Shown here piece by piece: positions 2,131-53,277 of a stretch of DNA of 64,000 nt. The notes below the pieces were generated by a model. It was given only the letters and a program-made list of their open reading frames with translations. It was not told the origin of the DNA and did no database searches. Positions within the stretch are counted from its first letter, which is position 1, and each line of letters starts with the position of its first letter. A program made the position numbers and the translations under genes. Source of the stretch: a bacterium (GTDB lineage Bacteria > JADJOY01); contig JAXLQJ010000002.1 of NCBI GenBank assembly GCA_046331705.1, forward strand, positions 78,370 through 142,369. Reading direction: 5' to 3'.

Positions 2131-2152
2131 GGCCGAGCCTCGTCCTTTCGCC

Positions 2153-3877: not shown

Positions 3878-3930
3878 GAAGCCTCCCAGACTCGTCCCGT
3901 CACCCCACCGATCGACCGCCCCGGCGCCCG

Positions 3931-5559: not shown

Positions 5560-5656
5560 GAGATCCCTCGCGCCTCACTCGCGCCTCACGCGCGCCTCTC
5601 GCGCGCGGCGCGCAGCGCCCTCGCGGGGCTTCGCGCTTGCCATCGATGCGAAACGC

Positions 5657-7384: not shown

Positions 7385-7455
7385 CCGGACTCCCTTCTCT
7401 CGTCATCCGCCTGTCGATCGATACGGTGACTCCCCTGCGTCTTGTGCCACGCAGC

Positions 7456-8301: not shown

Positions 8302-8475
8302 TCGACGGTATTTCAGGTGCGCAAGCAACTTGCGTGACCTGCAGCACGCAACGATGAAATATTTTTCGAATGGCTCACGGCGCGACGAGACGGTGCGCGG
8401 CGAGAATTTCGAGCGATCGAAGCGCTGGGTGACGGGCGTCACATTTTCAGCCGGCGGCGCTGTTCCATGATGCAA

Positions 8476-8491
8476 GTAGAACGTGTTCTAA
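8476..8491. promoter_or_regulatory. second operator-like palindrome GTAGAACGTGTTCTAA
   Basis: Core TAGAACGTGTTCTA is a perfect 14-bp palindrome fitting TnnAACnnGTTnnA; about 75 bp upstream of the acyl-CoA dehydrogenase start. Confidence 0.55.
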
Positions 8492-8562
8492 TCGAACCGA
8501 CGCGCCGCGGACGGACGGCGGCGGCACAGGCGATCCGCGGCGGATCGTGGAGCGAGCACGGC

Positions 8563-9744: not shown

Positions 9745-9754
9745 CGAGGCAAAC

Positions 9755-10744
9755 ATGGCCGCCACCCCATCCGATCGCGAGCAGCTCGAGACGAGACTCA
9801 AGGGGTTCGCGGGCATCGCCGCGGGGCCGCCGGAGATCGCCCGCGACGTGGTGGAAGCCGCGACGATCCGCCAATGGTGCGATGCCCTCGACGATCGCAA
9901 CCCGATCTACACCGACCCCGCGGCCGCCGCCGCGTCGGTCCACGGCCGTGTGGTCGCTCCGCCCACCATGCTGCAGGCGTGGGTGCTGCCGGGCATCGAG
10001 ATGGCCAGCGGGGTCGCGCGCCCCGGCGACAAGCAGCGCGAGCTGCACGCGCTCCTCGACCGCCACGGCTACACCGGCGTCGTGGCCACCAATTGCCAGC
10101 AGGGCTACGACCGCTATCTGCACCTGGGCGAGCGCGTGACCGGCACCACCGTCATCGAGTCGATCTCGGGCGAGAAGGCGACCGCGCTCGGTATCGGCTA
10201 CTTCATCGACACGCGCACCACCTTCCGCGACGACGACGGCGAGCGCGTGGGATGGATGACGTTCCGCGTGCTCAAGTTCAAGCCCGCAGCGCCCCCTGCC
10301 GCGAGCGAGCGCGACGCCGCGGGCGCGCCCGTCAAGCCCCGGCGGCTGCGGCCCGCGCTGGGTCACGACAACGCGTGGTGGTGGGAAGGGATCCGCCGCG
10401 GCGAGCTGCTCATCCAGCGCTGCAAGAGCTGCGGCCACCTGCGCCATCCGCCGCGACCGATGTGCGGCGAGTGCCGTTCGCTCGAATGGGACGCGCTCTC
10501 CTCGAAGGGCCACGGCAGCGTCTACAGCTTCGTGGTGATGCACCACCCGCAGGTGCCCGGCTACGAGTACCCGCTCATCGTGGCCCTCGTCGAGCTCGAC
10601 GAAGGCACCCGGCTGATCGCGAACCTCACGGGCATCGAGCCCCGCGCCGTGCGCATCGGGCTGCGGGTCGCGCTCGCCATCGAAGCCGTCGATCCCGAGC
10701 TCAGCTTGCCGTTCTTCCACCCCGACACCACCGCACCGGGCTGA
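9755..10744 (+). CDS. MaoC-like hydratase fused to C-terminal DUF35 OB-fold/Zn-ribbon domain (ChsH2-like architecture)
   Basis: N-terminal hot-dog-like region; C-terminal CKSCGH...CGECRS zinc ribbon followed by an OB-fold-like segment; the same two-domain layout as mycobacterial ChsH2. Confidence 0.8.
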   Translation: MAATPSDREQLETRLKGFAGIAAGPPEIARDVVEAATIRQWCDALDDRNPIYTDPAAAAASVHGRVVAPPTMLQAWVLPGIEMASGVARPGDKQRELHALLDRHGYTGVVATNCQQGYDRYLHLGERVTGTTVIESISGEKATALGIGYFIDTRTTFRDDDGERVGWMTFRVLKFKPAAPPAASERDAAGAPVKPRRLRPALGHDNAWWWEGIRRGELLIQRCKSCGHLRHPPRPMCGECRSLEWDALSSKGHGSVYSFVVMHHPQVPGYEYPLIVALVELDEGTRLIANLTGIEPRAVRIGLRVALAIEAVDPELSLPFFHPDTTAPG

Positions 10745-10746
10745 CC

Positions 10747-11883
10747 ATGGATTTCGCGCTCGACGAGGATCAGCAGTCGCTCCAGGCGCTGGCCCGCCAG
10801 ATCTTGGAACGGGAGGTCACGCCAGCGCGGATTCGCGCGGCGCTGGCGAGCGCGGACGGCATGGATCACGCGCTCTGGTCGACGCTCGCCGACGCGGGCC
10901 TCCTGGGGATCGGCGTTCCCGAGACGCACGGCGGCCTCGGCGGCGGTCTCGAGGCGCTGAGCTTGCTGCTGGTCGAGGTGGGGCGCGCCGTGGCGCCCGT
11001 GCCGGCGCTCGCGTCGCTCGCGCTGGCGGGCCTCGCGATCGCGCGTTTTGGAACCGAGCGGCAACGCGCCGAGCTGCTCGCGCCGCTCGCCGCGGGCCGG
11101 ACCGTTCTCACCGCGGCGCTCGTCGACGGCGAATCGTCCGATCCCCTCCGCCCCGCATGCAGCGCGCGACGCGACGGCGCGAGCTGGGTGATCGACGGCT
11201 CGAAGCGCCAGGTGCCCGCGATCGCCGCCGCCAGCGCGATCGTCGTGCCCGCGCGCACCGAAGGCGGCGTCGGTCTCTTCGTGGTGCCGCCGAGCGCCGC
11301 CGGCGTCGAGCCGAGCCGCCGGCGCTGCTCGAGCGGCGAGCCGATCGCCGATCTGGCCCTCACGGGCGTGCGCGTGGACGCCGACGCGCTGCTCGGCACG
11401 GCGGCGCCCGTCGGCGACGACGCGAGCCGCTGGCTCCACGAGCACGCGCTCGCCGCGACTTGCGCCGTGCACCTGGGTGTCTGCGAGCGCGCGCTCGAGC
11501 TGACCCGCGACTACGTTCGCGAGCGGCGTCAGTTCGGCGTGCCGATCGGCTCGTTCCAGGCGGTGAGCCATCGCGCCGCCGATGGCTTCATCGACGTCGA
11601 GTGCATCCGCTGGACCACCTGGCAGGCGGTGACGCGGGTGGCGCGCGGCCTCGACGCGACCCGCGCGCTCGCCGTCGCGAAGTTCTGGGCCGCCGAGGGC
11701 GGAGCGCGCGTCACCAGCTCCGCGCAGCACCTCCACGGCGGCATCGGCGCCGACCTCGACTACCCGATCCACCGCTATTTCCTGTGGTCGAAGGCGCTCG
11801 AGCTGAGCCTCGGCGGTGCCACCGAGCAGCTCGCGAGGCTCGGTCGCGATCTGGTGACCCGCGGCCCGGAGGTGCTCGCATGA
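10747..11883 (+). CDS. acyl-CoA dehydrogenase (second subunit-like)
   Basis: MDFALDEDQQSLQALARQILEREV start 3 nt after the upstream stop. The track ORF 9874..11883 is an artefactual 5' extension in this frame. Confidence 0.8.
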   Translation: MDFALDEDQQSLQALARQILEREVTPARIRAALASADGMDHALWSTLADAGLLGIGVPETHGGLGGGLEALSLLLVEVGRAVAPVPALASLALAGLAIARFGTERQRAELLAPLAAGRTVLTAALVDGESSDPLRPACSARRDGASWVIDGSKRQVPAIAAASAIVVPARTEGGVGLFVVPPSAAGVEPSRRRCSSGEPIADLALTGVRVDADALLGTAAPVGDDASRWLHEHALAATCAVHLGVCERALELTRDYVRERRQFGVPIGSFQAVSHRAADGFIDVECIRWTTWQAVTRVARGLDATRALAVAKFWAAEGGARVTSSAQHLHGGIGADLDYPIHRYFLWSKALELSLGGATEQLARLGRDLVTRGPEVLA

Positions 11884-12308
11884 ACGACTGCGCGCTTCGC
11901 CTTCGCGACGTGAACGTGGGCGACGTGCTGCCCGAGCTGGCGATCGACGTCACCACCACCCTGATCGTCGCAGGCGCCCTCGCCTCGCACGACTTCACGC
12001 CCGTTCACCACGACAAGGCCGCTGCCCGAGCGCAGGGCTTGAACGACGTGTTCATGAACATCCTCACGACCAACGGCCTGGTGGGGCGCTACGTCACCGA
12101 TTGGGCCGGGCCGAACGCGCGGCTCACCGGCGTCGCGATCAAGCTCGGAGCGCCCAACCTGCCCGGCGACACGATGCGCATGTCGGGCGTCGTCAAGAGC
12201 AAGGACGACGCGCGCGGCTCCGTCGAGGTCGAGGTCACCGGCAAGAACTCGTGGGGAAACCACGTGACCGCGACGGTCGCGTTGCTGCTGCCCGAGGACG
12301 CCGCGTGA
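11880..12308 (+). CDS. MaoC family dehydratase, small hot-dog subunit (ChsH1-like)
   Basis: ATGA start/stop overlap with the upstream gene; GGAGG RBS; 142 aa MNDCALRLRDVNVGDV...; tail of track ORF 11157..12308. Confidence 0.75.
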   Translation: MNDCALRLRDVNVGDVLPELAIDVTTTLIVAGALASHDFTPVHHDKAAARAQGLNDVFMNILTTNGLVGRYVTDWAGPNARLTGVAIKLGAPNLPGDTMRMSGVVKSKDDARGSVEVEVTGKNSWGNHVTATVALLLPEDAA

Positions 12309-12357
12309 CGGCGCAGCTCCCGTCCGGACGCGCACCGAGCAGCGAGCGGAGCCACGC

Positions 12358-13530
12358 ATGCCCACGACGTTGAGGGATCAGGCCGCGATCGTCGGCATCG
12401 GCGAGACCGACTACTCGAAGAACTCGGGGCGCTCCGAGGTTCAGCTCGCCAGCGAAGCGGTCGCCGCCGCCCTCGACGACGCCGGGCTGCGCCCCTCCGA
12501 CGTCGACGGCATGACCACGTTCACCCTCGACTCGAGCGACGAGATCGAGGTGGCGCGTGCCGTGGGCATCCGCGACCTCACGTTCTTCAGCCGCGTGCCC
12601 CACGGCGGCGGCGCCGCGGTCGGCGTGGTCCATCAAGCGGCGATGGCGGTCGCCACCGGCGCGGCGCGCACGGTGGTGTGCTACCGCGCGCTCAACGGCC
12701 GCTCGGGTCAGCGCTACAGCTCCGGCGTCGCCGACGGGCCGACCACCTCCGATCTCATCCATTGGAGCTGGTACATGCCCTTCGGCCTCATGACGCCCGC
12801 GAGCTGGGTGGCGATGTTCGCCCAGCGCTACATGCACGAGTACGGCGTCACCAGCCTCGACTTCGGGCGGGTCGCGGTGTCGACGCGCAAGCACGCGGTG
12901 CGCAATCCGCGAGCGTTCTTCCACGGCAAGCCGCTCTCGATCGCCGAGCACCAGGCGTCGCGGCTGATCGTCGAGCCGTTGCGTCTCTACGATTGCTGCC
13001 AGGAGACCGACGGCGGCTGCGCCTGCATCGTGACCACGCCCGACCGCGCGCGCGATTGCCGCCAGCCCGCCGCGACGATTCGCGGCGTCGCGCAAGGCTC
13101 GTGCGCCGATCAGGAAGTGATGACCAGCTTCTATCGGCCGAGCATCTCCGGGCTGCCCGAGATGGACCTGGTGGCGCGCCAGGTCTACGACGTCTCGGGC
13201 TTGCGCCCAGACGACGTGGACGCGGCGGTGATCTACGACGCCTTCTCGCCCATCGTGCTGTGGCAGCTCGAGAGCTTCGGCTTCTGCAAGGTCGGCGAAG
13301 CGCGCGATTTCGTGAACGGCGGCAATCTCGAGATCGGCGGGCGCCTGCCGAGCAACACCCACGGCGGGCAGCTCAGCGAGGCCTACGTCCACGGCATGAA
13401 CGGCGTGAACGAGGGCGTGCGGCTGATCCGCGGCACCTCGTGCAATCAACCGCGGCGCAACGATCACGTGCTGGTCACCGCCGGCGTGGGCGTTCCGACC
13501 AGCGCCATGATCCTCGGCAAGACCGCGTGA
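12358..13530 (+). CDS. thiolase-like lipid-transfer protein (SCP-x type, Ltp2-like)
   Basis: IVGIGETDYSKNSGRSE thiolase-like N-terminus; CCQETDGGCACIV; GGAG RBS. Confidence 0.8.
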   Translation: MPTTLRDQAAIVGIGETDYSKNSGRSEVQLASEAVAAALDDAGLRPSDVDGMTTFTLDSSDEIEVARAVGIRDLTFFSRVPHGGGAAVGVVHQAAMAVATGAARTVVCYRALNGRSGQRYSSGVADGPTTSDLIHWSWYMPFGLMTPASWVAMFAQRYMHEYGVTSLDFGRVAVSTRKHAVRNPRAFFHGKPLSIAEHQASRLIVEPLRLYDCCQETDGGCACIVTTPDRARDCRQPAATIRGVAQGSCADQEVMTSFYRPSISGLPEMDLVARQVYDVSGLRPDDVDAAVIYDAFSPIVLWQLESFGFCKVGEARDFVNGGNLEIGGRLPSNTHGGQLSEAYVHGMNGVNEGVRLIRGTSCNQPRRNDHVLVTAGVGVPTSAMILGKTA

Positions 13531-14799
<1,269 letters not shown>

Positions 14800-14874
14800 G
14801 CTTCCGCGCCGACCAGCGGACCGCGTCGAACCACGCGAGGACCTCGACAACCCGAGCATGCGGAGGAGCTGGCG

Positions 14875-15810
14875 ATGACGACGAACGCGAGGCCGCTCGA
14901 AGGGAAGGTCGCGATCGTGACGGGCGCGGGACGTGGGCTGGGACGCGCCGAAGCGCTGGCGCTCGCCGCGCACGGCGCGCGCGTGGTGATCAACGACCTC
15001 GGCGTGGCGGGGGACGGCTCGGGCGCGGACGAGGGCCCCGCACGCGAGGTGGTGGCCGAGATCGAGCGCGCCGGTGGCGAGGCGATCGCCCATTTCGGCG
15101 ACGTCGCGCGCTGGGACGACGCGGCGGCGCTGGTGGCGCGGGCGGTCGACGTGTTCGGCGATCTGCACGTCCTCGTGAACAACGCCGGCTTCAGCCGCGA
15201 TCGCATGATCTTCAACATGTCGGAGCAGGATTGGGACTCGGTGATCCGCGTCCATCTCAAGGGCCATTTCTGCACCTCGCGATTCGCCACCGCGCATTGG
15301 AGGGAGCAGGCGAAGGTCGCGGGTGGCCCGGTCTACGGGCGCATCGTCAACACCGCGTCCGAGGCGTTCCTGTTCGGACCGGCCGGGCTGGCCAACTACG
15401 CCGCCGCGAAGTCGGGAATCGTCGGCCTCACCGTCGCCACCGCGCACGCGTGCGAGAAATACGGCGTGACGGCCAACGTGGTGTGCCCGCGGGCACGCAC
15501 CCGCATGAACAGCGAAGGGAGCCTCGGCGCGCTGTTCGCCAAGCCCGAGCAGGGATTCGACACCTACGACCCCGCCAACGTGGCGCCGCTGGTGGCGTAC
15601 CTCGCGTCGCCTGCCGCCGGGCGCATCAACGCCCACGTGTTCCTGGCGTGGGGAACGCAGGTCTGCTTGATCGGCGCGCCGCGCGTCCTCGAGACCTTCA
15701 CGAGCGACGCGCGCTGGACGGTCGACCGGCTCGACGAGCGCGTCGGCCGCTACCTGGAGACCCGCGATCCCGCCTCCACGGCGTTCGCCGCCGAGCTTCC
15801 CGGGATCTGA
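14875..15810 (+). CDS. SDR family oxidoreductase, MFE-2/Hsd4A-like hydroxyacyl-CoA dehydrogenase
   Basis: [13 protein letters not shown] cofactor motif, [14 protein letters not shown] segment, YAAAK catalytic motif; GGAGGAG RBS. Confidence 0.8.
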
Positions 15811-15832
15811 GCCGCGCGCGCGAGCCGTGCCG

Positions 15833-16615
15833 TCAGGACGCCTCGGCCTTCTCGATCAGCTTCCAGAGCAGCTTGGGCGCGAAGCGCCGGAGCCCGAGCA
15901 AGAACTTCGCCTCGCCGGTGGGGAAGACGATCTCGTCGCCGCGCTCGAGCGCTTCCTCGACCAGCTCCACGATGCGCTCCGGCTTCGCCAGCCGGCCCTG
16001 CTCGATGCCGATCTGGATCGAACGCGGATTGGATCCCTCGATCGCCTGCTCGAGCAGCGGCGTGTCCACCATCGGCGGACAGACGAGCAGGATGCGCACG
16101 CCGCTACCGCGATTCTCGTGGATCAACACCTCGGCGAAGATGTTCACCGCCGCCTTGCTGGCGTTGTAGGCGCCGAGGTGCGGAGTGGGCACCAGGCCCG
16201 CGAGCGAACCGTAGAAGATCCAGTCGCCCGCGCGGCGCGCGACCATCGCGGGCAAGGTGGCGGTGGCGAGATGGAGGGTGCCTTCGTAGTTGATGCGCAT
16301 GACGCGGCGGATGGTCTCGACCGGCATGGTCAGCAGCGGCGCCGTGGGCATGATCGCCGCCGCGTGAGTCACGCGGTCGACGGCGCCGAGCTCCGCGCCG
16401 ACGCGCTCCACGGTGGCGCGCACCTCGTCGAGATTCGCGAGGTCGCAGCGATAGGTGCGCACGCTGGCGCGCCCGGCGGCGGTGCGCGCGAGCCCCTCTT
16501 CGTTCACGTCGAGCGCCGCGACCGTGGCCCCCGCGTCGGCCAACCGCCACGCGGAGAGTTGCCCCATGCCACTGGCGGCGCCGGTGACCAAGGCGAGCTT
16601 CCCGTGAAAGGCCAT
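15833..16615 (-). CDS. SDR family oxidoreductase
   Basis: MAFHGKLALVTGAASGMG start (ORF 15833..16705 trimmed to ATG at 16615); YNASKAAV catalytic motif. Confidence 0.75.
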   Translation of the reverse strand: MAFHGKLALVTGAASGMGQLSAWRLADAGATVAALDVNEEGLARTAAGRASVRTYRCDLANLDEVRATVERVGAELGAVDRVTHAAAIMPTAPLLTMPVETIRRVMRINYEGTLHLATATLPAMVARRAGDWIFYGSLAGLVPTPHLGAYNASKAAVNIFAEVLIHENRGSGVRILLVCPPMVDTPLLEQAIEGSNPRSIQIGIEQGRLAKPERIVELVEEALERGDEIVFPTGEAKFLLGLRRFAPKLLWKLIEKAEAS

Positions 16616-16732
16616 CTGCGTTCCCCCCGCCCGCGGTCGCGCGCCTCGCGCGCGCGAGCGCCGAGCATACGTTTCACCCGCGCGACCACCCGTGACCTCG
16701 ATCACCCTGCTCGCACGTGCCCGACTGCGCCC

Positions 16733-16761
16733 TTGACCCTGGATCGGCGGGCCGGTAATAG
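16733..16761 (+). promoter_or_regulatory. sigma70-like promoter candidate TTGACC-N17-TAATAG
   Basis: Read in an AT-richer intergenic stretch about 45 bp upstream of the sterol desaturase-family gene; GGAGG RBS follows. Confidence 0.3.
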
Positions 16762-16806
16762 TGATTCTGAATTTAGGAATGCTGGTTTTTGAGCGGGAGG
16801 CTCTGC

Positions 16807-17484
16807 ATGTCGGTCGCCGTCGCCGTCGCGATCACGATTGGAATGGTGATGTCCGCCTTCACGATGGGGGCGGTGGTGTGGGGCTTCTACTCGCCGATCA
16901 GCGCCAACATCCGCATCCGGGAAGAGAAGGCGCGCAAGCTCAAGGGCTGGCCGGTGGCGCTGCGGATCGGGCTCAACGGGCTGTTCTCGTCGGGACTCGT
17001 GTACCTGCTCGCGCTGGCCTTGCAGCACCAGCTCTTCTACGCGGCGCGCCCGTCGCTGGCGCGGCTCGCGTTCGAGTCGGTCGCGGTGCTCGTCGTCTAC
17101 GACTTCCTCTACTACTTGCTGCACCGCTATCCGTTTCACGCGTGGCCGGGCTTGCGCGAGGTGCACGCGGTCCATCACCGCGCCAAGTACCCGATCGCGT
17201 TCGACAGCCTCTACCTGAATCCCATCGAGACCCTCGCCGGTCTCGCCTTGCTCACCTTCTGCACCTGGCTGGTCGGGCCGGTGAGCGTGCACGCGTTCGG
17301 GCTGATCTTCTTGGTGTACTCGCAGATGAACATCCTGGTTCACTGCGGGCTCGATCTGCCCGGCGCGCTCCGGCCGTTTGGCTTCATGGCGCGCAAGCAC
17401 GACGCGCATCACCGGCACATGAAGGCCGGCAACTTCGCGTCGCTGACTCCGATCTGGGATCGGCTCTTCCGCACCGCGGAGTGA
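16807..17484 (+). CDS. sterol desaturase / fatty acid hydroxylase superfamily membrane protein
   Basis: Histidine boxes HRYPFH, HAVHHR and HDAHHRH in a hydrophobic protein; start set at ATG 16807 behind GGAGG. Confidence 0.8.
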   Translation: MSVAVAVAITIGMVMSAFTMGAVVWGFYSPISANIRIREEKARKLKGWPVALRIGLNGLFSSGLVYLLALALQHQLFYAARPSLARLAFESVAVLVVYDFLYYLLHRYPFHAWPGLREVHAVHHRAKYPIAFDSLYLNPIETLAGLALLTFCTWLVGPVSVHAFGLIFLVYSQMNILVHCGLDLPGALRPFGFMARKHDAHHRHMKAGNFASLTPIWDRLFRTAE

Positions 17485-19467: not shown

Positions 19468-20643
19468 TCACAGCCGCACGCAGCGCACGCCGTCCTTCTC
19501 CATCTCGACGACGCACAGGTTGCACGGCACGCAGCGCGATTCGGTGGCGAGCCCAGCCTGGAAGCGCTTGGGCAGATCGGGCTCGGCGATGAGCGCCCGG
19601 CCCATCGACACCAGCTCGAAGCCCGCGCTCATCGCACGGCCGATCCCGGCGACGGTCTTGACGCCGCCCAGCAACGCCACCGGGATGCGCACCGCGTCGG
19701 CGACGCGCTTGGCGCCCTCGAAGAAGAAATTCTCGTGGAACGGATACTCCTTCACCACGATGCGCCCGAAGAGCTTGAGCCCCACGCGCCTGAGCGCGCC
19801 AGACTGCACGGCGACCATCTCGTTCACCGGCACCGTGCCACGCAGCATGTAGAACGGCGTACGGCTCACGAAGCCGCCGCTCGGCACCAGCGCATCGGCG
19901 CCGGCGGCTTCCAGCGCACGCGCCACCACGACGGCGTCGTCGTGGGTGACCCCGCCGCGAAAGCCGTCGTCGAGGTTCATCTTCACGAGCACCGCGGCGC
20001 GACCGCCGACCGCGGCCCGCACGCGCTTCACGATCTCCGCCGGCAATCGCACGCGCTTCTCGAGCGTGCCTCCCCAGTCATCGCGACGGCGGTTGGTGAA
20101 GGCGCTCACGAACTGGCTCAAGAGATAACCGTGGCCCACGTGGATCTCGACGGCGTCGAAGCCGGCCTCGACGGCGCGGCGCGCGGCCGTCACGAAATCC
20201 TCGACGATGCGCGCGATGTCGCCCTCGGTCATCGCGCGGCACACGCTCATCCCGTAGAGGTTGAGGGCCCGCGACGCGCCCATCGGACGCCCGCCGATCA
20301 CGTGCTTGTCGGCGAAGTAACCGGCGTGGCCGAGCTGGATGGCCGCCAGCCCACCTTCGCCGTGGACCGCGTCGGTCAGCCGCCGCAGCGGAGCCACGAT
20401 CTCGGGACGCATCCACAGCTGGTGCTCGAAGGTGAGACCGTCGTGCGCCACCGCGCAATACGCCACCGTGGTCATCGCGGTGCCGCCCGCGGCGATGCCG
20501 CGGTGGTGCTCGACGAGCTTCTCGGATGGAACGCCGTTCGGGGACATGCCCTCGAAGGTCGCCGTCTTGATGAAGCGGTTGCGAAGCCGAAGCGGCCCCA
20601 GCGAGGTCGGGGTGAAGGCCTTTTCCACGTCTCCGAGCGTCAT
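19468..20643 (-). CDS. NADH:flavin oxidoreductase, Old Yellow Enzyme family
   Basis: FIKTATFEGM, AAIQLGHAGY and EIHVGHGYLLSQF motifs typical of OYE-type TIM-barrel flavoenzymes. Confidence 0.85.
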   Translation of the reverse strand: MTLGDVEKAFTPTSLGPLRLRNRFIKTATFEGMSPNGVPSEKLVEHHRGIAAGGTAMTTVAYCAVAHDGLTFEHQLWMRPEIVAPLRRLTDAVHGEGGLAAIQLGHAGYFADKHVIGGRPMGASRALNLYGMSVCRAMTEGDIARIVEDFVTAARRAVEAGFDAVEIHVGHGYLLSQFVSAFTNRRRDDWGGTLEKRVRLPAEIVKRVRAAVGGRAAVLVKMNLDDGFRGGVTHDDAVVVARALEAAGADALVPSGGFVSRTPFYMLRGTVPVNEMVAVQSGALRRVGLKLFGRIVVKEYPFHENFFFEGAKRVADAVRIPVALLGGVKTVAGIGRAMSAGFELVSMGRALIAEPDLPKRFQAGLATESRCVPCNLCVVEMEKDGVRCVRL

Positions 20644-20868
20644 GCACCGCAGCGTGCCACGCGATCCGAGTGCGCGGCGAGGCGGCTGGCGGACGCGGGC
20701 GGCCGCCGCGCGCGCGCCGTCGCGCCTCGGTCCGGGCGGGCGCGGTGCGGGCGGGGTGCGCAGGCTACCCGCGCAACCCGGTGCCGCGCGGGGCGGCGAG
20801 TGCTATAGATTCGCGCTTCCCCGGGCGGTGCAAGGGCCCCCCGGGCGAGCCCCGACCAGGACCGAGCC

Positions 20869-24545: not shown

Positions 24546-24931
24546 GCCGCGGCGCCCTTTCGAAGGTGCTCGCTCACGAGCATCGAGAGCGCGCCGAAAC
24601 CGAGCAGATTCAGCCCCGGGACGAAGAGGACGATCGCCCACAGCAGCGTGGCGCGCGAGCCGAGCGCGCGGGCCACCCGAACCCCGGCACCCAGACCGGC
24701 GAGCGCGAACATCATCGAGACCGCCGCCAGCGCCCCCGCAGCGAGGCGCGGCTCGACGGCGTCGAACAGGGGCGCCGGGCTGCGAAAGGCGAGCACGGCC
24801 GCGATCGCGAAGAGCCACTGGAGCGCGAACCACGCGGCGAGCTTGCGGTGCTCGGAGCGCACGTTCGCGACGGCGTCGGCGCGCTGCGACGCGCGGCGGC
24901 GCTCGAGCTTGCGGGTCAGCTCCTCGTTCAC
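24542..24931 (-). CDS. small hypothetical membrane protein
   Basis: Three hydrophobic stretches; 4-nt overlaps with both neighbouring minus-strand genes suggest coupling; start uncertain. Confidence 0.35.
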
Positions 24932-25434
24932 CGTCGCCGCGCCTTCTTGAGCGGCTTCGCCAGGTGCCGGAACTCGTCGACGACGCGCTGGTAGACGGCG
25001 CGCTTGAACGGCACGATCAAGGCCGGCACGTCGTCGATCGGCACCCATTTCCAGGCGGCGAACTCGGGATGATCGGTCTCGAGATCGATGTCCGAATCAC
25101 CGCCGGTGAAGCGCATCGCGAACCACTTCTGACGCTGACCGCGATAGCGACCGCTCCACACCTTGCCGAGGAGCTTGTCGGGCAGGTCGTAGTCGTACCA
25201 GCTCGCCGACTCGCCGAGGAACTCGGCGGCGTCGGTGCCGATCTCCTCGACCAGCTCGCGCAACGCCGCGGCGCAAGGCTCTTCGCCCTCGTCGATGCCA
25301 CCCTGGGGGAATTGCCAAGCGGGCGTGTTCTGGTCGATGCGCCGGCCGACGAAGACCCGTCCCGCGCGGTTGATCAGCACCACGCCGACACACAGTCGGT
25401 AGGGGAGGCTCTCTCGTTCGATCGACCTTCGCAT
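24928..25434 (-). CDS. NUDIX hydrolase (RppH/Ap4A hydrolase-like)
   Basis: Nudix box [22 protein letters not shown]. Confidence 0.75.
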
Positions 25435-25533
25435 CGCTCGCCCTCCGCATCGGCGGCGCACCTCGAACCGCGCCCGGGCCTCGCATGTATCCTACTCGCG
25501 CGCGACCCGTCGATCGTCGCCGCGAGCAACCCC

Positions 25534-26403
25534 ATGGACATGACCCTGAGCCTGCCCCGGCGCTTCGAGCGCGCCTACCCGCCCACCCTCCCCGCCGCTG
25601 GCGCGGCTCGTTGGCTGGTGTTTCGCGGCGAGGAGCTGGTGGTGAGCGAGTGCGGCACCACCGTCGAGCTGCTCACGGGCGACGCGCTCGGCTGCGGTCT
25701 CGGCGCCGAGGTCCGCGAGATCGTCCACCTGGGGCGCCTCGACGGCGTGAGCTGCCTCGCGGGCAGCGTCCCCGGCGATGCGCACCTCGACGAGGGCCTG
25801 CGGACGATGGACCTGCGCACCCTCTTCGAGCATCTGCCCGCGGACCTCTACGCGGTCGCCGGCTACGCCTACCAGCTGGTGCGCTGGCAGCGAGCGAGCC
25901 GCTTCTGCGCCTTCTGCGGCGCCGCGACCGGCCCGGTGGAGGGCGAGTGGGGGCGGCGCTGCGGCGGCTGCAACCACGTGACCTACCCGCACGTCAGCCC
26001 GTGCGTGATCGTGCTGATCCACGACGGGGGCGATCGGTTGCTGCTCGCGCATCGGCGCGGCCGCGGCGCGATGCGCAGCTTGATCGCGGGCTTTCTGGAG
26101 CCGAGCGAGAGCCTGGAAGAGGCGCTCCGGCGCGAGGTGCGCGAGGAAGTCGGGCTCGAGATCGACGACATCCGCTACTTCGCGAGCCAGCCGTGGCCGT
26201 TCCCGCACCAGCTGATGGTGGGGTTCTTCGCGCGGCACGCGGGCGGCGAGGTGCGGCCGGACGGCGACGAGCTCGACGAGGCGCGCTGGTACGACGTCGA
26301 CGATCTGCCGACGCTTCCCGGTCCGATCAGCATCGCGCGCCGGCTCATCGACGCGTTCGTGACCGACCGGATCGCGCTCCGCTCGGCTGGACGGAACGAC
26401 TAG
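25534..26403 (+). CDS. nudC: NAD+ diphosphatase (NudC-type NUDIX hydrolase with zinc ribbon)
   Basis: CAFCGAATGP...CGGCNHVTYP zinc ribbon followed by Nudix box GFLEPSESLEEALRREVREEVG; tail of track ORF 24376..26403 from ATG 25534. Confidence 0.8.
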   Translation: MDMTLSLPRRFERAYPPTLPAAGAARWLVFRGEELVVSECGTTVELLTGDALGCGLGAEVREIVHLGRLDGVSCLAGSVPGDAHLDEGLRTMDLRTLFEHLPADLYAVAGYAYQLVRWQRASRFCAFCGAATGPVEGEWGRRCGGCNHVTYPHVSPCVIVLIHDGGDRLLLAHRRGRGAMRSLIAGFLEPSESLEEALRREVREEVGLEIDDIRYFASQPWPFPHQLMVGFFARHAGGEVRPDGDELDEARWYDVDDLPTLPGPISIARRLIDAFVTDRIALRSAGRND

Positions 26404-26489
26404 AACGCGTTTCAATCCGCCGCCGTCACCGCGCCGGAGCCGGGCTCGCCGCCGGGCGCCCCGAGGCGCGTGCCCCCCGAGGTCCACTC

Positions 26490-27479
26490 ATGAAGGTCGC
26501 CGTCACCGGCGCCGCCGGACACGTCGGCGGCAACCTGGTCCGGGCGCTCCTCGAGCGTCGCCACCAGGTGCGCGCGATCGTGTACCAGGACACCCGCGCC
26601 GTCGACGGCCTCGCCGTCGAGCGCGTGCCCGCGGACGTGCTCGACGCCGACCAGGTGCAGCGCGCCTTCGAGGGAGTCGACTGGGTCTTCCACCTCGCCG
26701 CCAAGGTCTCGATCGAGGGCGACCCCGACGGCTCGGTGCACCGCACCAACGTGCTCGGCACACGCCACGTGGTCGAGGCCTGCCTGGCGCGCGGCGTGAA
26801 GCGCCTGGTCCACTTCAGCTCGGTCCACGCGCTGCGCAACGATCCGTACGACGTGCCGATGGACGAAGGGCGCCCGCTCGCCGACGAAGGACATGCCTTC
26901 GCCTACGATCTCTCGAAGGCCGGTTCGGAACGCGAGGTCCAGGCGGGCATCAAGCGCGGCCTCGACGCCGTGATCGTGAATCCCACCGCCATCCTCGGCC
27001 CCAGCGACTTCAAGCCGTCGCGCATGGGTCAGGTGCTCGTCGATCTCCACTTCCGGCGCTTACCGGCGCTGGTGGCCGGCGGCTTCGACTTCGTGGACGT
27101 GCGCGACGTCGCCGAGGGCGCCATCGCCGCCGCCGAGAGAGGCCGCACCGGCGAGCGCTACCTGCTCGGCAACGAGTACCGGCCGGTGCGCGAGCTCGCC
27201 GGGCTCTGCCGCGACGTCGCCGGCATCCGACCGCCGCGCTTCACGTCGCCGCTTTGGCTCGCCAGGGCCGGAGCGCCGTTCGCCGTCGCGTGGGCCAAGG
27301 TCTCCGGCACGCGCCCGCTCTTCACCGAGGAGTCCCTGCACGCGCTCGCGGGCAATCCCAACGTGAGTCACGAGAAGGCCACCCGCGAGCTCGGCTATCG
27401 ACCGCGCCCGCTCGCCACGAGCGTCGCCGACACCTACGGCTGGCTGCGCGAAGCCGGCCTGCTCGAAACCAAGACGTGA
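26490..27479 (+). CDS. NAD-dependent epimerase/dehydratase family protein (extended SDR, 3beta-HSD-like)
   Basis: MKVAVTGAAGHVGGNLV Rossmann start; YDLSK catalytic motif; tail of track ORF 25485..27479. Confidence 0.8.
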   Translation: MKVAVTGAAGHVGGNLVRALLERRHQVRAIVYQDTRAVDGLAVERVPADVLDADQVQRAFEGVDWVFHLAAKVSIEGDPDGSVHRTNVLGTRHVVEACLARGVKRLVHFSSVHALRNDPYDVPMDEGRPLADEGHAFAYDLSKAGSEREVQAGIKRGLDAVIVNPTAILGPSDFKPSRMGQVLVDLHFRRLPALVAGGFDFVDVRDVAEGAIAAAERGRTGERYLLGNEYRPVRELAGLCRDVAGIRPPRFTSPLWLARAGAPFAVAWAKVSGTRPLFTEESLHALAGNPNVSHEKATRELGYRPRPLATSVADTYGWLREAGLLETKT

Positions 27480-27486
27480 GGCATCG

Positions 27487-28248
27487 ATGACCGAGCATCA
27501 GCTCTACATGTGGGTGGTCTGGATCTGGCTCGGCCTCGCGGCGTTCACCTTCGTCTCGCTGTTCTTCTTCACCGCTCCCTACGGGCGCCATGCGCGCGCC
27601 GGCTGGGGGCCGATGATCGAGCGCACGGCCGCGTGGATGATCATGGAATCGCCGGTGGTCTTCCTGCCGCTGATCCTGTTCTTGGTGAGCGACCGGCGCG
27701 CGCTGGTGCCGTACGGGATCTTCCTGCTGATCTGGGAGTTTCACTACGTCCACCGCACCTTCGTGTTCCCGTTCCGGCTGCGCGGCGGCCAACCCCAGAT
27801 GCCGCTCTCGATCGTGGCGAGCGCGATCGTGTTCAACGTCGGCAACGCCTATCTGCAAGCGCGCTGGCTCTTCCACCTGCGCGAGCCCTATCCCGCCACT
27901 TGGCTGAGCGATCCGCGCTTCGCCATCGGCCTGGTGCTCTTCGCCGTCGGCTTCGCCATCAACTACCACTCCGACGGGATCACGCGGAATCTGCGCAAGC
28001 CCGGCGAGACCGGCTACAAGATCCCCTACGGTGGGTTCTTCCGCTGGGTGTCGGCGCCCAACTACCTGGGCGAGCTGATCGAGTGGACCGGCTGGGCGAT
28101 CCTCACGTGGTCGCGCGGCGGTGTGGTGTTCGTGATCTGGAGCGCCGCGAACCTGGTGCCGCGCGCGATCGCCAACCACCGCTGGTACCGCGAGAAGTTC
28201 CCGGACTACCCGCCCGAGCGTCGCGCCATCGTTCCCGGGCTGCTCTGA
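27487..28248 (+). CDS. 3-oxo-5-alpha-steroid 4-dehydrogenase (steroid 5-alpha-reductase / DUF1295) family membrane protein
   Basis: C-terminal GGFFRWVSAPNYLGELIEWTGWAI matches the SRD5A-family signature; multi-pass hydrophobic protein; starts 7 nt after the upstream stop. Confidence 0.8.
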   Translation: MTEHQLYMWVVWIWLGLAAFTFVSLFFFTAPYGRHARAGWGPMIERTAAWMIMESPVVFLPLILFLVSDRRALVPYGIFLLIWEFHYVHRTFVFPFRLRGGQPQMPLSIVASAIVFNVGNAYLQARWLFHLREPYPATWLSDPRFAIGLVLFAVGFAINYHSDGITRNLRKPGETGYKIPYGGFFRWVSAPNYLGELIEWTGWAILTWSRGGVVFVIWSAANLVPRAIANHRWYREKFPDYPPERRAIVPGLL

Positions 28249-28270
28249 ACGCTGCGCGCGCCGCGCGCGC

Positions 28271-29449
28271 TCATGCGCCGAAGATCGGCAGCGGGCCGGG
28301 GTCCTCGGCGAGCCGGCGCGTCAGGTAGTCGGCGGGCGGGATCTCCTCGAGCGCGAAGGTGATGCGGCGCGAGGTGACGTCCTCGGCGAGCGTGAGGTAG
28401 CCCTCGTCCGCGAGCGCGCACAGCATCCCGAAGACGTGGCTCGGGGTCGACACCGTGTGGCTGTGCGCCTGCGGCACGAGCGGGCTCAGATCCGCCGCCG
28501 TGAACGGCTCGCGGCGCGGCGCCGGGCCGTCGGCGTGCAGGAACTCGTTGCGCAAGATGCGGTAGAGCCCCTCGAAGTAGCGCTCGGCGAAGCGCACCCA
28601 GGCCATCGGCTCGACCACCGCGAAGCGGCCGTGCGGCGGCAGCACCACGCGCACGGCGAAGCGCTCGAAGAAGCGGCGGATTCGACGCAACGTGAGCAGA
28701 TAGCTCTCGAAGCCGCGCGAGTAGCCCTGCCCCATCACGGTGAAGATGGGCACCACGAAGTCGCGGCTCGCGGGCTCCTCGACGCGCCCGACGCAGATGA
28801 TGGTGTCGCCGGGGATCACCACGCCGCGCGCGGTGTCGAGGTAGAGCACGCAGTCGTTGGAATGCCCGGGGCTCGCGAGCGCGACGAACCCCGGCGGCAA
28901 CCGTCCCTCGTCGACGAAGCGCAGCGCCGCCTTGGGGGTGCGGGCGAAATACTGGGCATACGGCGCGCGGCGCGGATGCTCGAGCATCGCGGTGCCGGTG
29001 AAGGTCGAGAGGTCGATCAAGCCGAACTGGGCGCGGGCCTGGAAGATCAGGAAGGTCTCGTCGAAGTACGAGGCGGCCGGTTGGGTCAAGAAGCGGTAGC
29101 CCGCCGAGTGGACGTGGATGGGCGCGCGCTCGCCGGGCGCGCGGCCGAGGCCCGCGACGACACCCGCCATGCCGGCGTGATCGCCGTGGCAATGGGTCAC
29201 GAGCACGGCGTCGAGCTCGGCCACGTCGGCCTGCACCAGCGCGTTGGTCAGCTCCGCGACGATGTCGGGCCGCGCCGCGGGCGCCTCGAAGAGCAGCGCG
29301 CGAGCGCCATCGCGGATCAGCACGGGATTGATGCGGCGCGGCGACGGATAACCGCTCGCGACCGGGTGCACCGAGACCTCGGCGGCGAGGCCGAGGTCGG
29401 CGAGTGCCACGTCGAAGGGCACGAGGGCGCGGCGGGTCTCTTCGGACAC
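28271..29449 (-). CDS. MBL-fold metallo-hydrolase
   Basis: VLVTHCHGDHAG metal-binding motif (HxHxDH). Confidence 0.75.
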   Translation of the reverse strand: MSEETRRALVPFDVALADLGLAAEVSVHPVASGYPSPRRINPVLIRDGARALLFEAPAARPDIVAELTNALVQADVAELDAVLVTHCHGDHAGMAGVVAGLGRAPGERAPIHVHSAGYRFLTQPAASYFDETFLIFQARAQFGLIDLSTFTGTAMLEHPRRAPYAQYFARTPKAALRFVDEGRLPPGFVALASPGHSNDCVLYLDTARGVVIPGDTIICVGRVEEPASRDFVVPIFTVMGQGYSRGFESYLLTLRRIRRFFERFAVRVVLPPHGRFAVVEPMAWVRFAERYFEGLYRILRNEFLHADGPAPRREPFTAADLSPLVPQAHSHTVSTPSHVFGMLCALADEGYLTLAEDVTSRRITFALEEIPPADYLTRRLAEDPGPLPIFGA

Positions 29450-41249: not shown

Positions 41250-41722
41250 GCCGGCCTCCGCGGGCGCCGCGTGAGCATGAAGGCGCCTGTCGCCGAGGCG
41301 ATCGGATCGTCCGGATCGTCGTGATACGCGACGGCGCGTGCGAACGCGACGTGACGGGTGAGTCGATAGCAATCCGCGCGTGCCAGCACGGCTTGGCGCG
41401 CCGTGGCGGGGCGCAGGTAGTCGATCCGAAGGTCGAGCGTCGCCACCGCCGCTGGCTTCACGAGCGCTGCCATCACGGCCATGCCGCACGTGGAATCGAG
41501 CAAGGCGGTGATGACGCCGCCAGCCAACACCCCCGTGATCGGATTGCCCACCAAGTCCTCGCGATACGCCAATCGCATGCGCCCGCCGCCGGGCCACACG
41601 TCGAGAAGCTCGAGCCCGAGCTCGCGGTTGTGAGGAATGCCCTCCATGCAGATCTGCCGCAGGATGTCGAGCTGCGGCAGCGCATCCTGAGGGCGAGCGC
41701 GACGATCGTCTTGCGGGTCCAT
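41246..41722 (-). CDS. PaaI-family hot-dog thioesterase (paralog)
   Basis: ITGVLAGGVITALLDSTCGMA motif; 4-nt overlap with the downstream paralog. Confidence 0.6.
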   Translation of the reverse strand: MDPQDDRRARPQDALPQLDILRQICMEGIPHNRELGLELLDVWPGGGRMRLAYREDLVGNPITGVLAGGVITALLDSTCGMAVMAALVKPAAVATLDLRIDYLRPATARQAVLARADCYRLTRHVAFARAVAYHDDPDDPIASATGAFMLTRRPRRPA

Positions 41723-41757
41723 GGCGCCGCAAATCTAGCGTATGGTGGCGCGGGCGC

Positions 41758-43212
41758 ATGCGCGTCCTACTCGTCCACCCCCACCTCTTCCATCACCCGA
41801 CGGCGACCGTTCCGAGCGGGCTCGCGTGGCTGGCGGCGGCGCTGCGGGCGCGTGGCGCCCAAGTGGCTCTGCTCGATCTCGCCTTCGTCTGGAACCGCAG
41901 CCGCGTCATCCCCGCGGCGATCGGCGAGCTCGAGCCCGACGTCATCGGCATCGGCGTCGCGCACCTCGACAACGAGTGCGCGTTCCACTCGATCACGTTC
42001 CTTCCGCAAATCCGCTGGGTGATCGATCGCATCCGCGCCGCCAGCCGCGCCCCGATCGTGGCAGGCGGCTTCGGCATCACGCAGTGCGCCCGCGACGTGC
42101 TCACGTACCTGGGCCTGGCGCACGGCTTCCAGGGCGGCGACGTGGCGGAGGCGGCGCGCTGGATCGAAGCCGTCGGCGGACGCGACGATCGCGCCGAGGT
42201 GGCCGGCGCCATCCGCTGGACCGGTGCCGCGTACGAGAGCTTCACCGCGGCCGCGCGACCGACCCACGGGCTGCCCATCCCGTGCTCGGCAGCGCACGAC
42301 CTCGTCGACTACTCGCCGTACCGGCGGACGTCGGCTGCGGCCGTGGTGCCGATCGTGCTGGATCGGGGCGGCGTTCCGGCGCGGCGACCCGCGGCCGAGA
42401 TCGCGGACGAGCTCGGCGCGCTCGCCGCAACGCGTTCGGTTTCCCGCGCCTTGCTCGCGGGCCTGACGGTGGGGCTCGATCCCGCCCACGACGACGAGCT
42501 GCTCGAGACCTTGGCGAGCCGTGGCGCGCCGCTCGCCACGGAGATCCAGCTCGCGGCGCGCGCCGCGACTCGCGAGCGGGTCGCGCTGCTGCGCGCCAGC
42601 GGCGCCCGCGCGATTCGGCTGCGGCTCGCGGCGCCGGCCAGCGGCGAGGTGTCGCGCCCATCTCGGCTCGCCGCCGAGCGCGATGCGCTTCCGCGCGCGC
42701 TCGAGCGCATCGGCGGCGCCATCCCCATCCGGCTCGAGGTTGCGATCGGCGGGCTCGACGAGTCGGCAGACTCACTCGCACGAACGCTCGCCCTCGTCGA
42801 TGCGTTGCACCCGCGGCCGGCTGCGATCGAGCTCGTCCCCGGCGTCCGGCTCTGGGACGAGCCCGGCGAGGGCGCCGTCATCCGGCGCGGCGGCTTCGCC
42901 GGTGACTCGCCGATCTGGCCGCGCTTCGGCTTCGCCGCCGAGATCGAGTCGGGCTTGGCGGAGCGCCTCCGGCAGTTCGCCTCGACGCGCCCGGGCGTGA
43001 GCGTGGACTCGACGCCTACGCGCCGTGGCAACGCGTTGCCCACGCGATCGGGCGCCGCTGCGGGGTCTGGCCCGCGTGGCTCGCGGGCTCGGCGCTGGCC
43101 GATCTCCCGAAACGCCTGCGACGCGCGTGTATCGAAAGAGTACCGTTCCGCATGCAGCCGATGTAACATCCGTCGACGCCACGATCGAAACCGAGACGAA
43201 CGTCGAGCATCC
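41758..43212 (+). CDS. B12-binding-domain radical-SAM-like protein lacking the CxxxCxxC motif; 3' boundary unresolved
   Basis: N-terminus MRVLLVHPHLF...GLAWLAAALRARGAQVALLDL resembles the B12-binding domain of class B radical SAM enzymes, but no Cys triad follows; codon bias decays near 43000 yet the frame has no stop before 44298. Confidence 0.4.
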
Positions 43213-44298
43213 ATGGCCTCGCCGACCACGACCACGGTCCTCACGCAGGAAGAGATCAAGGTTCCCTGGAAGCTGTTCCGCGGGAACCATCAGCGCAGCG
43301 GCCAAGTCGCCGCGATGAATCCGGTTCGTCTCACCGGCGTGCGCTGGGAGCTGCGCGTCGGTCGCGTGACGTGGTCATCGCCCGCGATCGACGACGACAC
43401 CGTCTACATCGGCCTCGAGGACGGCGCGCTGCTGGCGGTCGACGCACGTTCCGGCAAGCGCGTGTGGCGATATCGCACGGGCGGCGCCGTGCTGAGCTCG
43501 CCCGCCATCGATGGGGAATTGGTGCTGGTCGGATCCGAGGACCAGAACCTGCACGCCGTCGACCGCAAGGTCGGCGTGGCGCGCTGGACCGCGCCGCTCG
43601 GAAGCGCGGTGACCAGCTCGCCGCTGGTGAAGGGCGGGCGCATCTTCGTGGGTTCGTGGGACGAGAACCTCTACTGCCTCTCGGAGAAGGACGGCGCGGT
43701 GCTGTGGAGCCATCCCACCGGCGGGCGCGTGTGGAGCTCGCCTGCGCTAGCCGACGACACCGTGGTGGTGGCATCGGCGTCCGGCTACATCCTGGCGCTC
43801 GATCCCCGTGACGGCTCACGGAAGTGGCGCTTCAAGGCCCGCAACCGCATCTACTCGACGCCCGCCATCGCCCACGGAATGGTCTTCGTGGGCTGTCACG
43901 ACGGCAACCTCTACGCCATCGACATGAAGACGGGCAAGCGGCGCTACGCGGTGGAGACCAAGGACAAGATCCGGTCGTCGCCGGCGGTCGTGGAAGGCAA
44001 GGTCCTGTTCGGGTCCGAGGACGGGAAGTTCCATTGCATCGACGCGCTGAGCGGCGAGCAGCGCTGGGTCTTCGATGCCAAGGGCGGCATCGACTCGTCG
44101 CCCGCCGTGAGCGGCGACACCGTCCTCTTCGGCACGCTCGCCAACCGCGTGCACGCGCTCGACGTGAACAACGGCCGCGAACGCTGGGGCTTCTCCACCG
44201 ACGACTGGGTCGATTCCAGCCCGGCGCTGTGGGGTCGATTGATCGTGTTCGGGTCGTACGACGGCCACCTCTACGGGCTCGAGTTCGACACCGAGTGA
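43213..44298 (+). CDS. PQQ-like beta-propeller repeat protein (BamB-like fold)
   Basis: Repeated SSPA(I/V)..G.(V/I)(Y/F).G..DG.L.A(V/L)D propeller blades; ATG at 43213 follows an AT-richer stretch; in frame with the upstream ORF. Confidence 0.6.
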   Translation: MASPTTTTVLTQEEIKVPWKLFRGNHQRSGQVAAMNPVRLTGVRWELRVGRVTWSSPAIDDDTVYIGLEDGALLAVDARSGKRVWRYRTGGAVLSSPAIDGELVLVGSEDQNLHAVDRKVGVARWTAPLGSAVTSSPLVKGGRIFVGSWDENLYCLSEKDGAVLWSHPTGGRVWSSPALADDTVVVASASGYILALDPRDGSRKWRFKARNRIYSTPAIAHGMVFVGCHDGNLYAIDMKTGKRRYAVETKDKIRSSPAVVEGKVLFGSEDGKFHCIDALSGEQRWVFDAKGGIDSSPAVSGDTVLFGTLANRVHALDVNNGRERWGFSTDDWVDSSPALWGRLIVFGSYDGHLYGLEFDTE

Positions 44299-50756: not shown

Positions 50757-50933
50757 CTCGATCCCTCCGGAAGACGGCGTCTTCCGATCCTACGATGGTC
50801 CCCGCCAGCGAGCCACCGCGACGCGTGGAACGCGACTCGGCCGCCCCGGCGCGTGCTTCAGCTCGGACGTCCCCGCAACGCGCGCGAGGCCACGACCGAC
50901 GAGCCCGGGCGGCGGCCTCGGCACCTGCCTCCG

Positions 50934-51884: not shown

Positions 51885-51908
51885 CGGACGGCGAACGGTG
51901 CACCGCGA

Positions 51909-52970: not shown

Positions 52971-53277
52971 GACTGAGCGGTGCGGGAGCGAGAGCGCAAC
53001 TTTGAGACGCGGTTAGCGTCAAGCTATCAGTCGCCATTTCGGCATGTCAAGCAAGACTTCCGCCATCGCGTCCGGCAAAACTCGATTGATTTCGACACCT
53101 TATGGCTTGACGTCGGGGCGCGATCCGGGTCATGCCCGACGCACCACCGAGCCGATGTTGCACATGCGGCGCCAACTCCTCGCCGCCACGCCACGATCCC
53201 GCGGGGTCATGCGCCGAGATGAAACGCAGGTTTGGGAATTGCCAGTCGCGGTCCGGCGCGGGTATGGTCGGCGCAGC

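Follow-up and report, generated by a model that had tools for sequence, protein, structure and literature searches.

Bacterial steroid reductases of the SRD5A family, and their co-operation with 3-hydroxysteroid dehydrogenases (3-HSDHs), are already known. The bacterial enzyme PbSRD5A (PDB entry 7C83) reduces progesterone in vitro and does not accept testosterone (PMC7815742). A homologue from Leifsonia rescues the Arabidopsis det2 mutant, and the authors of that gene-transfer study state that the role of the gene in bacteria is unknown (PMC11131428). In gut Bacteroidota, a cluster encoding an SRD5A-like 5α-reductase (5AR), a 3β-hydroxysteroid dehydrogenase (3β-HSDH) and a 5β-reductase (5BR) leads to isoallolithocholic acid (isoalloLCA); there the 5AR acts first and 3-keto reduction follows (Sato et al. 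2021, as reviewed in PMC12345280 and PMC10382948). SdmB and SdmC serve bacterial sterol C-4 demethylation (PMC10202945), and in eukaryotic dolichol synthesis the dehydrogenase DHRSX acts both before and after SRD5A3 (PMC11250103). Herein, we describe two adjacent genes at positions 26490-28248 of a 64,000-nucleotide stretch, referred to as the window, of contig JAXLQJ010000002.1 from an environmental metagenome-assembled genome (MAG). They encode a short-chain dehydrogenase/reductase (SDR) of the extended type and a membrane protein assigned to the SRD5A1/2/DET2 type. Family membership, an intact active site and a tight and widespread genetic coupling are demonstrated for this pair.

Layout and conservation of the gene pair

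The SDR gene (329 aa) runs on the forward strand from an ATG at 26490 to a TGA at 27477-27479. The reductase gene (253 aa, 27487-28248) follows on the same strand after a 7-nt spacer (ggcatcg). A sequence-only reading of the stretch had described an SDR with a YDLSK motif ending 7 nt before a membrane protein with an SRD5A signature, and both the coordinates and the spacer were borne out. Homologue alignments begin at residue 1 of each protein, so both start codons are right. A Shine-Dalgarno-like GAGG at 26479-26482 (+), recognized in the sequence from its resemblance to the consensus alone, lies 7 nt 5' of the SDR ATG. A second GAGG, at 27478-27481 (+), shares nucleotides with the stop codon of the SDR and stands 5 nt ahead of the reductase ATG, making it the likely site of translational coupling between the two genes. 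The next gene downstream, an MBL-fold gene at 28271-29449, is convergent; the reductase is therefore the last gene of its transcription unit. A scan of 26200-28500 for promoters and terminators found none, a result that is uninformative at the ~70% G+C of the window.

Conservation of the pair was surveyed from both sides. One genome per species was scanned with an alignment of reductase homologues, and the best 80 of at least 577 matching stretches were kept. These 80 loci belong to Myxococcota, Spirochaetota, Chloroflexota, Actinomycetota, Acidobacteriota, Planctomycetota, Gemmatimonadota and other Proteobacteria, as well as to archaea of the Thermoplasmatota. An orthologous SDR (full length, 42-57% identity) lies directly upstream on the same strand in 36 of them, and the paired loci cover at least six bacterial phyla plus the Thermoplasmatota. 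The two genes overlap in 17 of these 36 pairs (13 pairs share 4 nt and 4 pairs share 8 nt), and the remainder are mostly no more than 27 nt apart. On the SDR side, 72 metagenome loci offered at least 300 nt of sequence downstream of the SDR, and 55 of them carried the reductase directly downstream. An exact-sequence look-up of SDR homologues gave the same arrangement in two of three cases. The adjacency of SDR and reductase is thus far above chance, and because it is conserved across phyla, the two genes constitute a conserved functional unit. The co-occurrence surveys thereby uphold the earlier view of the pair as a coupled module. Pairwise distances of SDR and reductase are also correlated over 75 complete pairs (Mantel r = 0.73, with 0 of 999 permutations reaching r), although vertical descent in common would by itself give some correlation.

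In a neighbor-joining tree, paired loci are scattered over the whole prokaryotic clade of fetched loci, within which the PbSRD5A and Leifsonia enzymes also nest. Pairing varies by group: it was present in 12 of 14 loci from Chloroflexota, both loci from Thermoplasmatota, one of nine from Actinomycetota, and none of the eight from Spirochaetota or the six from Sandaracinaceae. The window locus is one ordinary member of this large family, which includes a cultured carrier of the pair, Polyangium fumosum DSM 14668 (locus L014). All-against-all clustering of open reading frames (ORFs) in 4-5 kb flanks yielded no third conserved gene; the maximum was 13 of 80 loci in one set and 9 of 93 in the other. 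The best-shared flanking clusters comprised ABC ATPases of generic type and kinases or reflected synteny within a clade, and a Pfam census of 112 flanking ORFs returned only housekeeping families (LepA, DEAD helicases, ABC transporters, CoA ligases).

The nearest relative of the window pair, at 87% identity, is locus L001 from a long-read activated-sludge MAG. Its SDR gene (9008-9993) lies in two frames with a break near residue 227, representing either a frameshift pseudogene or an assembly indel error. The gene preceding the pair in the window is NudC-like, identified by reading its translation and not by a domain match, and lies 86 nt upstream of the SDR on the same strand. It was ruled out as a member of the unit, being kept beside the pair only in L001. 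It forms a head-to-head arrangement of Nudix genes (24928-26403), in which an RppH-like gene occupies 24928-25461 (−) and the NudC-like gene (+) ends at 26403.

Assignment of the two enzymes

The reductase, whose sequence includes GGFFRWVSAPNYLGELIEWTGW, matched PF02544 (Steroid_dh) with 171.3 bits against a gathering cut-off of 22.6, with profile positions 2-149 of 150 aligned. Its other Pfam matches were DUF1295 with 26 bits and PEMT with 22 bits, the latter under the PEMT cut-off. A PDB search returned PbSRD5A (7C83) with an E value of 2e-75, human SRD5A2 (7BW1) with 4e-46 and a TECR-like chain with 5e-14; identity was 47.6% to PbSRD5A and 38.6% to human SRD5A2. The AlphaFold (AF2) model, built with 26 homologues as input, reached a mean predicted local distance difference test score (pLDDT) of 89.4. 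In Foldseek it aligned with template modeling (TM) scores of 0.91 to 7C83 and 0.82 to 7BW1, in a seven-helix membrane fold. Among PDB chains the reductase is nearest to the SRD5A2 type. Judged by profile, structure match and model, the membrane protein is an SRD5A1/2/DET2-type reductase and not a PEMT, ICMT or DUF1295 protein. The SRD5A-type assignment made earlier was thus sustained by the domain scores, and the PDB ranking, with human SRD5A2 far ahead of the TECR-like chain, points away from the methyltransferase and polyprenol reductase clades that had been named as the alternative.

Active-site residues were mapped onto those of human SRD5A2, for which Han et al. give E57 and Y91 as catalytic and N160, D164, R171, N193, E197, R227, H231 and Y235 as NADPH-binding (PMC7815742). 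The catalytic Glu and Tyr correspond to E54 and Y87 in the window reductase and are present in all 80 loci. All eight NADPH-binding residues are kept, as N159, D163, R170, N192, E196, R226, H231 and Y234. Human Q56 of the QEY signature is replaced by Met53, and Met occupies this position in all 80 loci (L001-L080). In the same study, mutation of Gln56 inactivates SRD5A2 (PMC7815742). Locus L060, from a Leifsonia genome, encodes a protein with 56% identity to the window reductase and the M-E-Y motif, and carries a tRNA-Val directly upstream, a placement that matches the published description of the Leifsonia gene (PMC11131428). Because a homologue from this det2-complementing genus falls in the M-E-Y group, the Gln of the QEY signature is probably not essential. 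For the same reason, the change from Gln to Met was rejected as a mark of a different substrate or chemistry. A presumed Arabidopsis DET2 sequence aligned at 44.7% identity and likewise showed M-E. From homologues at 48-56% identity, the window enzyme is predicted to be a seven-helix, NADPH-dependent enone reductase that carries out 5α-reduction of a 3-oxo-Δ4 steroid.

The SDR starts MKVAVTGAAGHVGG and includes an N-terminal TGAAGHVGG. Its motifs are TGxxGxxG (T6-G7-A-A-G10-H-V-G13), S110/S111 and Y139-D-L-S-K143; S110, S111, Y139 and K143 are invariant among 28 SDR orthologues. PF01370 (Epimerase) was the best Pfam match with 104.7 bits. PF01073 (3Beta_HSD) followed with 79.1 bits, its match restricted to profile positions 1-187 of 280, the Rossmann half, and adh_short gave no match in the Pfam search. 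Among NCBIfam models, HpnA (TIGR03466) scored 248 bits and SdmB (NF052578) 224.9 bits, both over the full length, against curated cut-offs of 367.65 and, for the SdmB equivalog, 600. OleD scored 101 bits against 580. Equivalogs for sugar enzymes reached 20-62 bits against cut-offs of 224-730, for example GalE with 45.7 versus 262, dTDP-glucose dehydratase with 44.8 versus 365 and LegB with 62 versus 475. The AF2 model had a pLDDT of 93.5. The best PDB match was 3WJ7, the uncharacterized Gox2253, at 36% identity; the further neighbors in a PDB fold search were generic extended SDRs at 18-27% identity, and the fold search was set aside as a discriminator since it had no resolution past Gox2253.

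On these profile scores, the SDR is a distinct subfamily standing beside two triterpenoid-associated SDRs, HpnA and SdmB. SdmB-type enzymes perform both oxidation and reduction at sterol C-3, and the SdmB of Calothrix by itself forms lanosterone from lanosterol (PMC10202945). Three closer identifications were discarded. A canonical 3β-HSD/isomerase was ruled out by the partial, N-terminal PF01073 match scoring below Epimerase. SdmB itself was rejected on the cut-off and because no Rieske-domain (SdmA) ORF occurs among the window ORFs scanned. HpnA was rejected on the cut-off and because neither a squalene-hopene cyclase nor hpn genes occur among those ORFs or near the 93 paired loci. Of the sequence-only designation "3β-HSD-like extended SDR", the extended SDR with its TGxxGxxG, Ser and YxxxK elements therefore stands, and the canonical 3β-HSD does not, given the partial PF01073 match and the scores under the HpnA and SdmB cut-offs. 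Nor did the enzyme side with nucleotide-sugar epimerases, a possibility raised at the same time, as its HpnA and SdmB scores far exceed that of GalE. An SDR orthologue (P0142, with 59% identity to that of the window) was also encountered in locus L081 (5051-8265) without a reductase behind it; a second 3Beta_HSD/Epimerase-type SDR precedes it and a thiolase follows. The subfamily hence occurs in other contexts too.

Proposed function and its alternatives

We propose, with slightly better than even confidence, that the pair is a self-contained operon whose two enzymes, a C-3 oxidoreductase and a Δ4-5α-reductase, would act successively on one steroid-like lipid. The C=C bond reduced by characterized SRD5A-family enzymes is in every case conjugated to a carbonyl. 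A substrate that is an alcohol would therefore have to be oxidized first, and the ketone or aldehyde product is usually reduced again. In the reductase, Glu54 and Tyr87 would hold the C-3 carbonyl while NADPH delivers hydride to C-5 of the 3-oxo-Δ4 ring. The SDR, related to the bacterial sterol enzyme SdmB, would serve as the C-3 hydroxyl/ketone oxidoreductase. It may convert a 3β-hydroxy-Δ5 lipid into the 3-oxo-ene substrate, return the saturated 3-ketone product to the alcohol, or do both. The net result would be conversion of a Δ5-stenol or Δ4-3-ketosteroid to a 5α-stanone or 5α-stanol.

In this scheme we infer that the natural substrate is a steroid, in which order the steps run and what the stereochemistry at C-3 is. 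The order of dehydrogenase followed by reductase, as first suggested for this locus, is not established; in the sole characterized bacterial precedent the reductase acts first (PMC12345280, PMC10382948). Many carriers belong to phyla from which, as general background, sterol synthesis is not reported, and we accordingly lean, if only a little, toward a sterol or steroid of exogenous origin, acquired from the environment, as the most economical substrate.

Several observations weigh against the proposed steroid function. The SDR falls under the curated cut-offs of both SdmB and HpnA, its PF01073 match is confined to the Rossmann half, and its fold neighbors apart from Gox2253 include sugar epimerases and cinnamoyl-CoA reductases. 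Δ5-to-Δ4 isomerase activity is not known from this SDR family. The position of Gln56, mutation of which inactivates SRD5A2, is Met in the window reductase. The correlated distances of SDR and reductase would be expected as well of any two genes inherited together by vertical descent. The pair has no sterol, hopanoid or isoprenoid gene as a companion in the 93 paired loci, and we know of no report of sterol synthesis in carriers such as Dehalococcoidia, Anaerolineales, Acidimicrobiia and Thermoplasmatota. Finally, the steroid context of the window is weak.

Approximately 45 window ORFs were scanned by profiles, and none of them was an oxidosqualene or squalene-hopene cyclase, a CYP51, a Rieske KshA/SdmA or a clear KstD. 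The sequence-only reading had placed the pair near other sterol-type genes. This part is weak, as the candidates amount to a generic β-oxidation-like cluster (8338-16831), 10-18 kb upstream of the pair, an FA_hydroxylase-family ORF (16.8-17.5 kb) and an OYE-family NADH:flavin oxidoreductase. The cluster comprises an acyl-CoA dehydrogenase, two classical SDRs, a hydratase with ChsH2 architecture (hotdog, zinc ribbon and OB fold), an Ltp "lipid-transfer" thiolase (PRK07855, 633 bits, over the cut-off) and a second thiolase, together with an uncalled gene of high GC3 (G+C at third codon positions) at ~10.75-11.88 kb and, at ~11.9-12.3 kb, a small hotdog ORF of the MaoC type. Its gene content is compatible with steroid side-chain degradation sets without being diagnostic, suggestive but generic. 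The ChsH2-like hydratase and Ltp thiolase were discarded as steroid evidence, being too generic and syntenic in L001 only. The OYE gene (19468-20802, −) adjoins an enoyl-CoA hydratase, lies 5.7 kb from the pair and is conserved with it in L001 only; it scored 160 bits with BaiCD against a cut-off of 825. At 445-7402 (−) stand four consecutive paralogous FAD-dependent oxidoreductases of ~550-680 aa, an unusual tandem array that scored 103-232 bits against a curated cut-off of 1000. They were rejected as KstD, being most similar to β-carotene ketolase CrtO and the phytoene desaturase (CrtI) family and far under the cut-offs. The window neighbors (NudC, RppH, GNAT, PfkB, enoyl-CoA hydratase, OYE, MBL and GGDEF) are syntenic in L001 only.

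Two further features of the window were recorded. A 920-aa ORF at 41539-44298 (+) joins an N-terminal B12-binding domain to a C-terminal PQQ/BamB-like β-propeller (Beta-prop_ACSF4, 278 bits), an odd combination. An HrcA-GrpE-Hsp70-DnaJ chaperone cluster occupies 47854-53012 (−), and its Hsp70-family ORF (48966-50789) matches PF00012 weakly, with 100 bits, which suggests a divergent DnaK paralogue.

The proposed steroid function admits an ecological extension. Hydrogenation of stenols to stanols, recorded by geochemists in anoxic sediments and soils, is microbial. To our knowledge, the enzymes of this microbial stanol formation are not known, and our literature search on bacterial stanol-forming 5α-reductases and on the function of Gox2253 found nothing relevant. 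The operon might be the enzymatic basis of Δ5-stenol to 5α-stanol hydrogenation via Δ4-3-ketones in such settings, a doubtful idea that we would put at about one chance in several. The SDR would then act twice, as DHRSX does, for a net reaction of stenol plus NADPH to stanol. The operon occurs in Chloroflexota, Myxococcota, other Proteobacteria, Acidobacteriota, Acidimicrobiia and Thermoplasmatota archaea.

Among the rival explanations, a pair for detoxification or remodeling of some other membrane-soluble α,β-unsaturated carbonyl, such as lipid 2-alkenals or non-steroid terpenoid or polyketide enones, survives best, although we consider it unlikely. Here the enone reductase would act first and the carbonyl reductase second. 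Next to Gox2253, the structures most like that of the SDR include cinnamoyl-CoA, kavalactone and dihydroflavonol reductases, all acting on non-steroid carbonyls, and the module sits in random genomic contexts, as is frequent for stand-alone detoxification genes. PbSRD5A is moreover selective, refusing testosterone, so that its substrate range is not "all steroids" (PMC7815742). Against this, experimentally tested members of the SRD5A1/2/DET2 subclass all act on 3-oxo-Δ4 steroids, and the top SDR scores fall on two triterpenoid-associated families.

Somewhat less probable still is a module for α-saturation of polyprenols, a prokaryotic analogue of DHRSX/SRD5A3, in which polyprenol would be oxidized to polyprenal by the SDR, the conjugated C2=C3 bond saturated by the SRD5A-type enzyme, and dolichal reduced by the SDR to a carrier lipid resembling dolichol. 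Eukaryotes have such a scheme as an established route, with one SDR working before and after an SRD5A-family enal reductase (PMC11250103). A universal substrate would also explain the breadth of carriers, including Thermoplasmatota archaea and Dehalococcoidia, and would fit a pair that no sterol genes accompany in the 93 paired loci. The enzymes themselves point elsewhere: the reductase is short (253 aa), of the SRD5A1/2/DET2 type and 38.6% identical to human SRD5A2, and enzymes of the same prokaryotic clade reduce true steroids. DHRSX is a classical SDR, whereas the window SDR is extended and lacks an adh_short match, and among the 112 flanking ORFs examined with Pfam, neither glycosylation nor prenyl-synthase genes go with the pair.

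That the SDR acts on nucleotide sugars, as an epimerase or dehydratase serving envelope glycans, and shares no substrate with the reductase is very improbable: the generic Epimerase family is its top Pfam match, many of its Foldseek matches are UDP-sugar epimerases and HpnA is annotated as a "hopanoid-associated sugar epimerase", but models for GalE, RmlB and other sugar enzymes score far below HpnA and SdmB, sugar epimerase structures are only 18-27% identical, the 112 flanking ORFs show no glycosyltransferase theme, and the reciprocal, cross-phylum and often overlapping linkage favors a shared pathway.

Relation to described systems

Our search of the accessible literature found no description of an SDR and SRD5A operon of this kind. 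What is new is a tightly coupled, multi-phylum operon that uses an HpnA/SdmB-like extended SDR, a variant of the bacterial 5AR/3β-HSDH systems. Bacterial SRD5A homologues have so far been used as structural stand-ins for a drug target in humans and have illustrated gene transfer from plant to bacterium. About half of the closest species-level loci hold a dedicated SDR partner that is co-translated, which gives their role a concrete two-enzyme hypothesis, and Polyangium fumosum DSM 14668 offers a cultured carrier for testing it. Should the pair act on a sterol from the environment, the operon would mark 5α-stanol formation genetically and would bear on the interpretation of sterol biomarkers. 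Should it act on a polyprenol, it would be the counterpart in prokaryotes of the dolichol pathway in its recently revised form.

The window reductase is closest in structure to PbSRD5A, with which it shares the fold, 47.6% identity, the catalytic Glu/Tyr and NADPH residues and membership of the same prokaryotic clade. They differ in the signature, Q-E-Y in PbSRD5A versus M-E-Y in the window reductase, and the loci most similar to PbSRD5A (L028 and L045) lack an SDR partner. With plant DET2 and the Leifsonia homologue the window enzyme shares the SRD5A1/2/DET2 subclass and, at L060, the M-E-Y motif. The Leifsonia gene, in contrast, is a solitary insertion beside a tRNA without an SDR, and DET2 works within the long brassinosteroid pathway.

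The SDR belongs to the same extended-SDR subfamily as SdmB/SdmC and HpnA, with full-length matches. Its partner is an SRD5A reductase, unlike SdmB and HpnA, which go with the SdmA Rieske protein or hopanoid genes. The DHRSX and SRD5A3 couple follows the logic proposed here, as the dehydrogenase makes a conjugated carbonyl, the SRD5A-family enzyme saturates it and the dehydrogenase restores the alcohol. It differs in its classical rather than extended SDR, in its polyprenol substrate and probably in its SRD5A subclass.

In overall arrangement, the gut Bacteroidota cluster offers a parallel: an SRD5A-like reductase stands beside a 3-hydroxysteroid dehydrogenase and the two act sequentially on the A ring (PMC12345280, PMC10382948). 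The Bacteroidota cluster is found in association with a host, has bile acids as its substrates and carries a presumed 5β-reductase of the OYE type, whereas the carriers of the window pair are environmental and belong to other phyla, the window itself coming from an environmental MAG.

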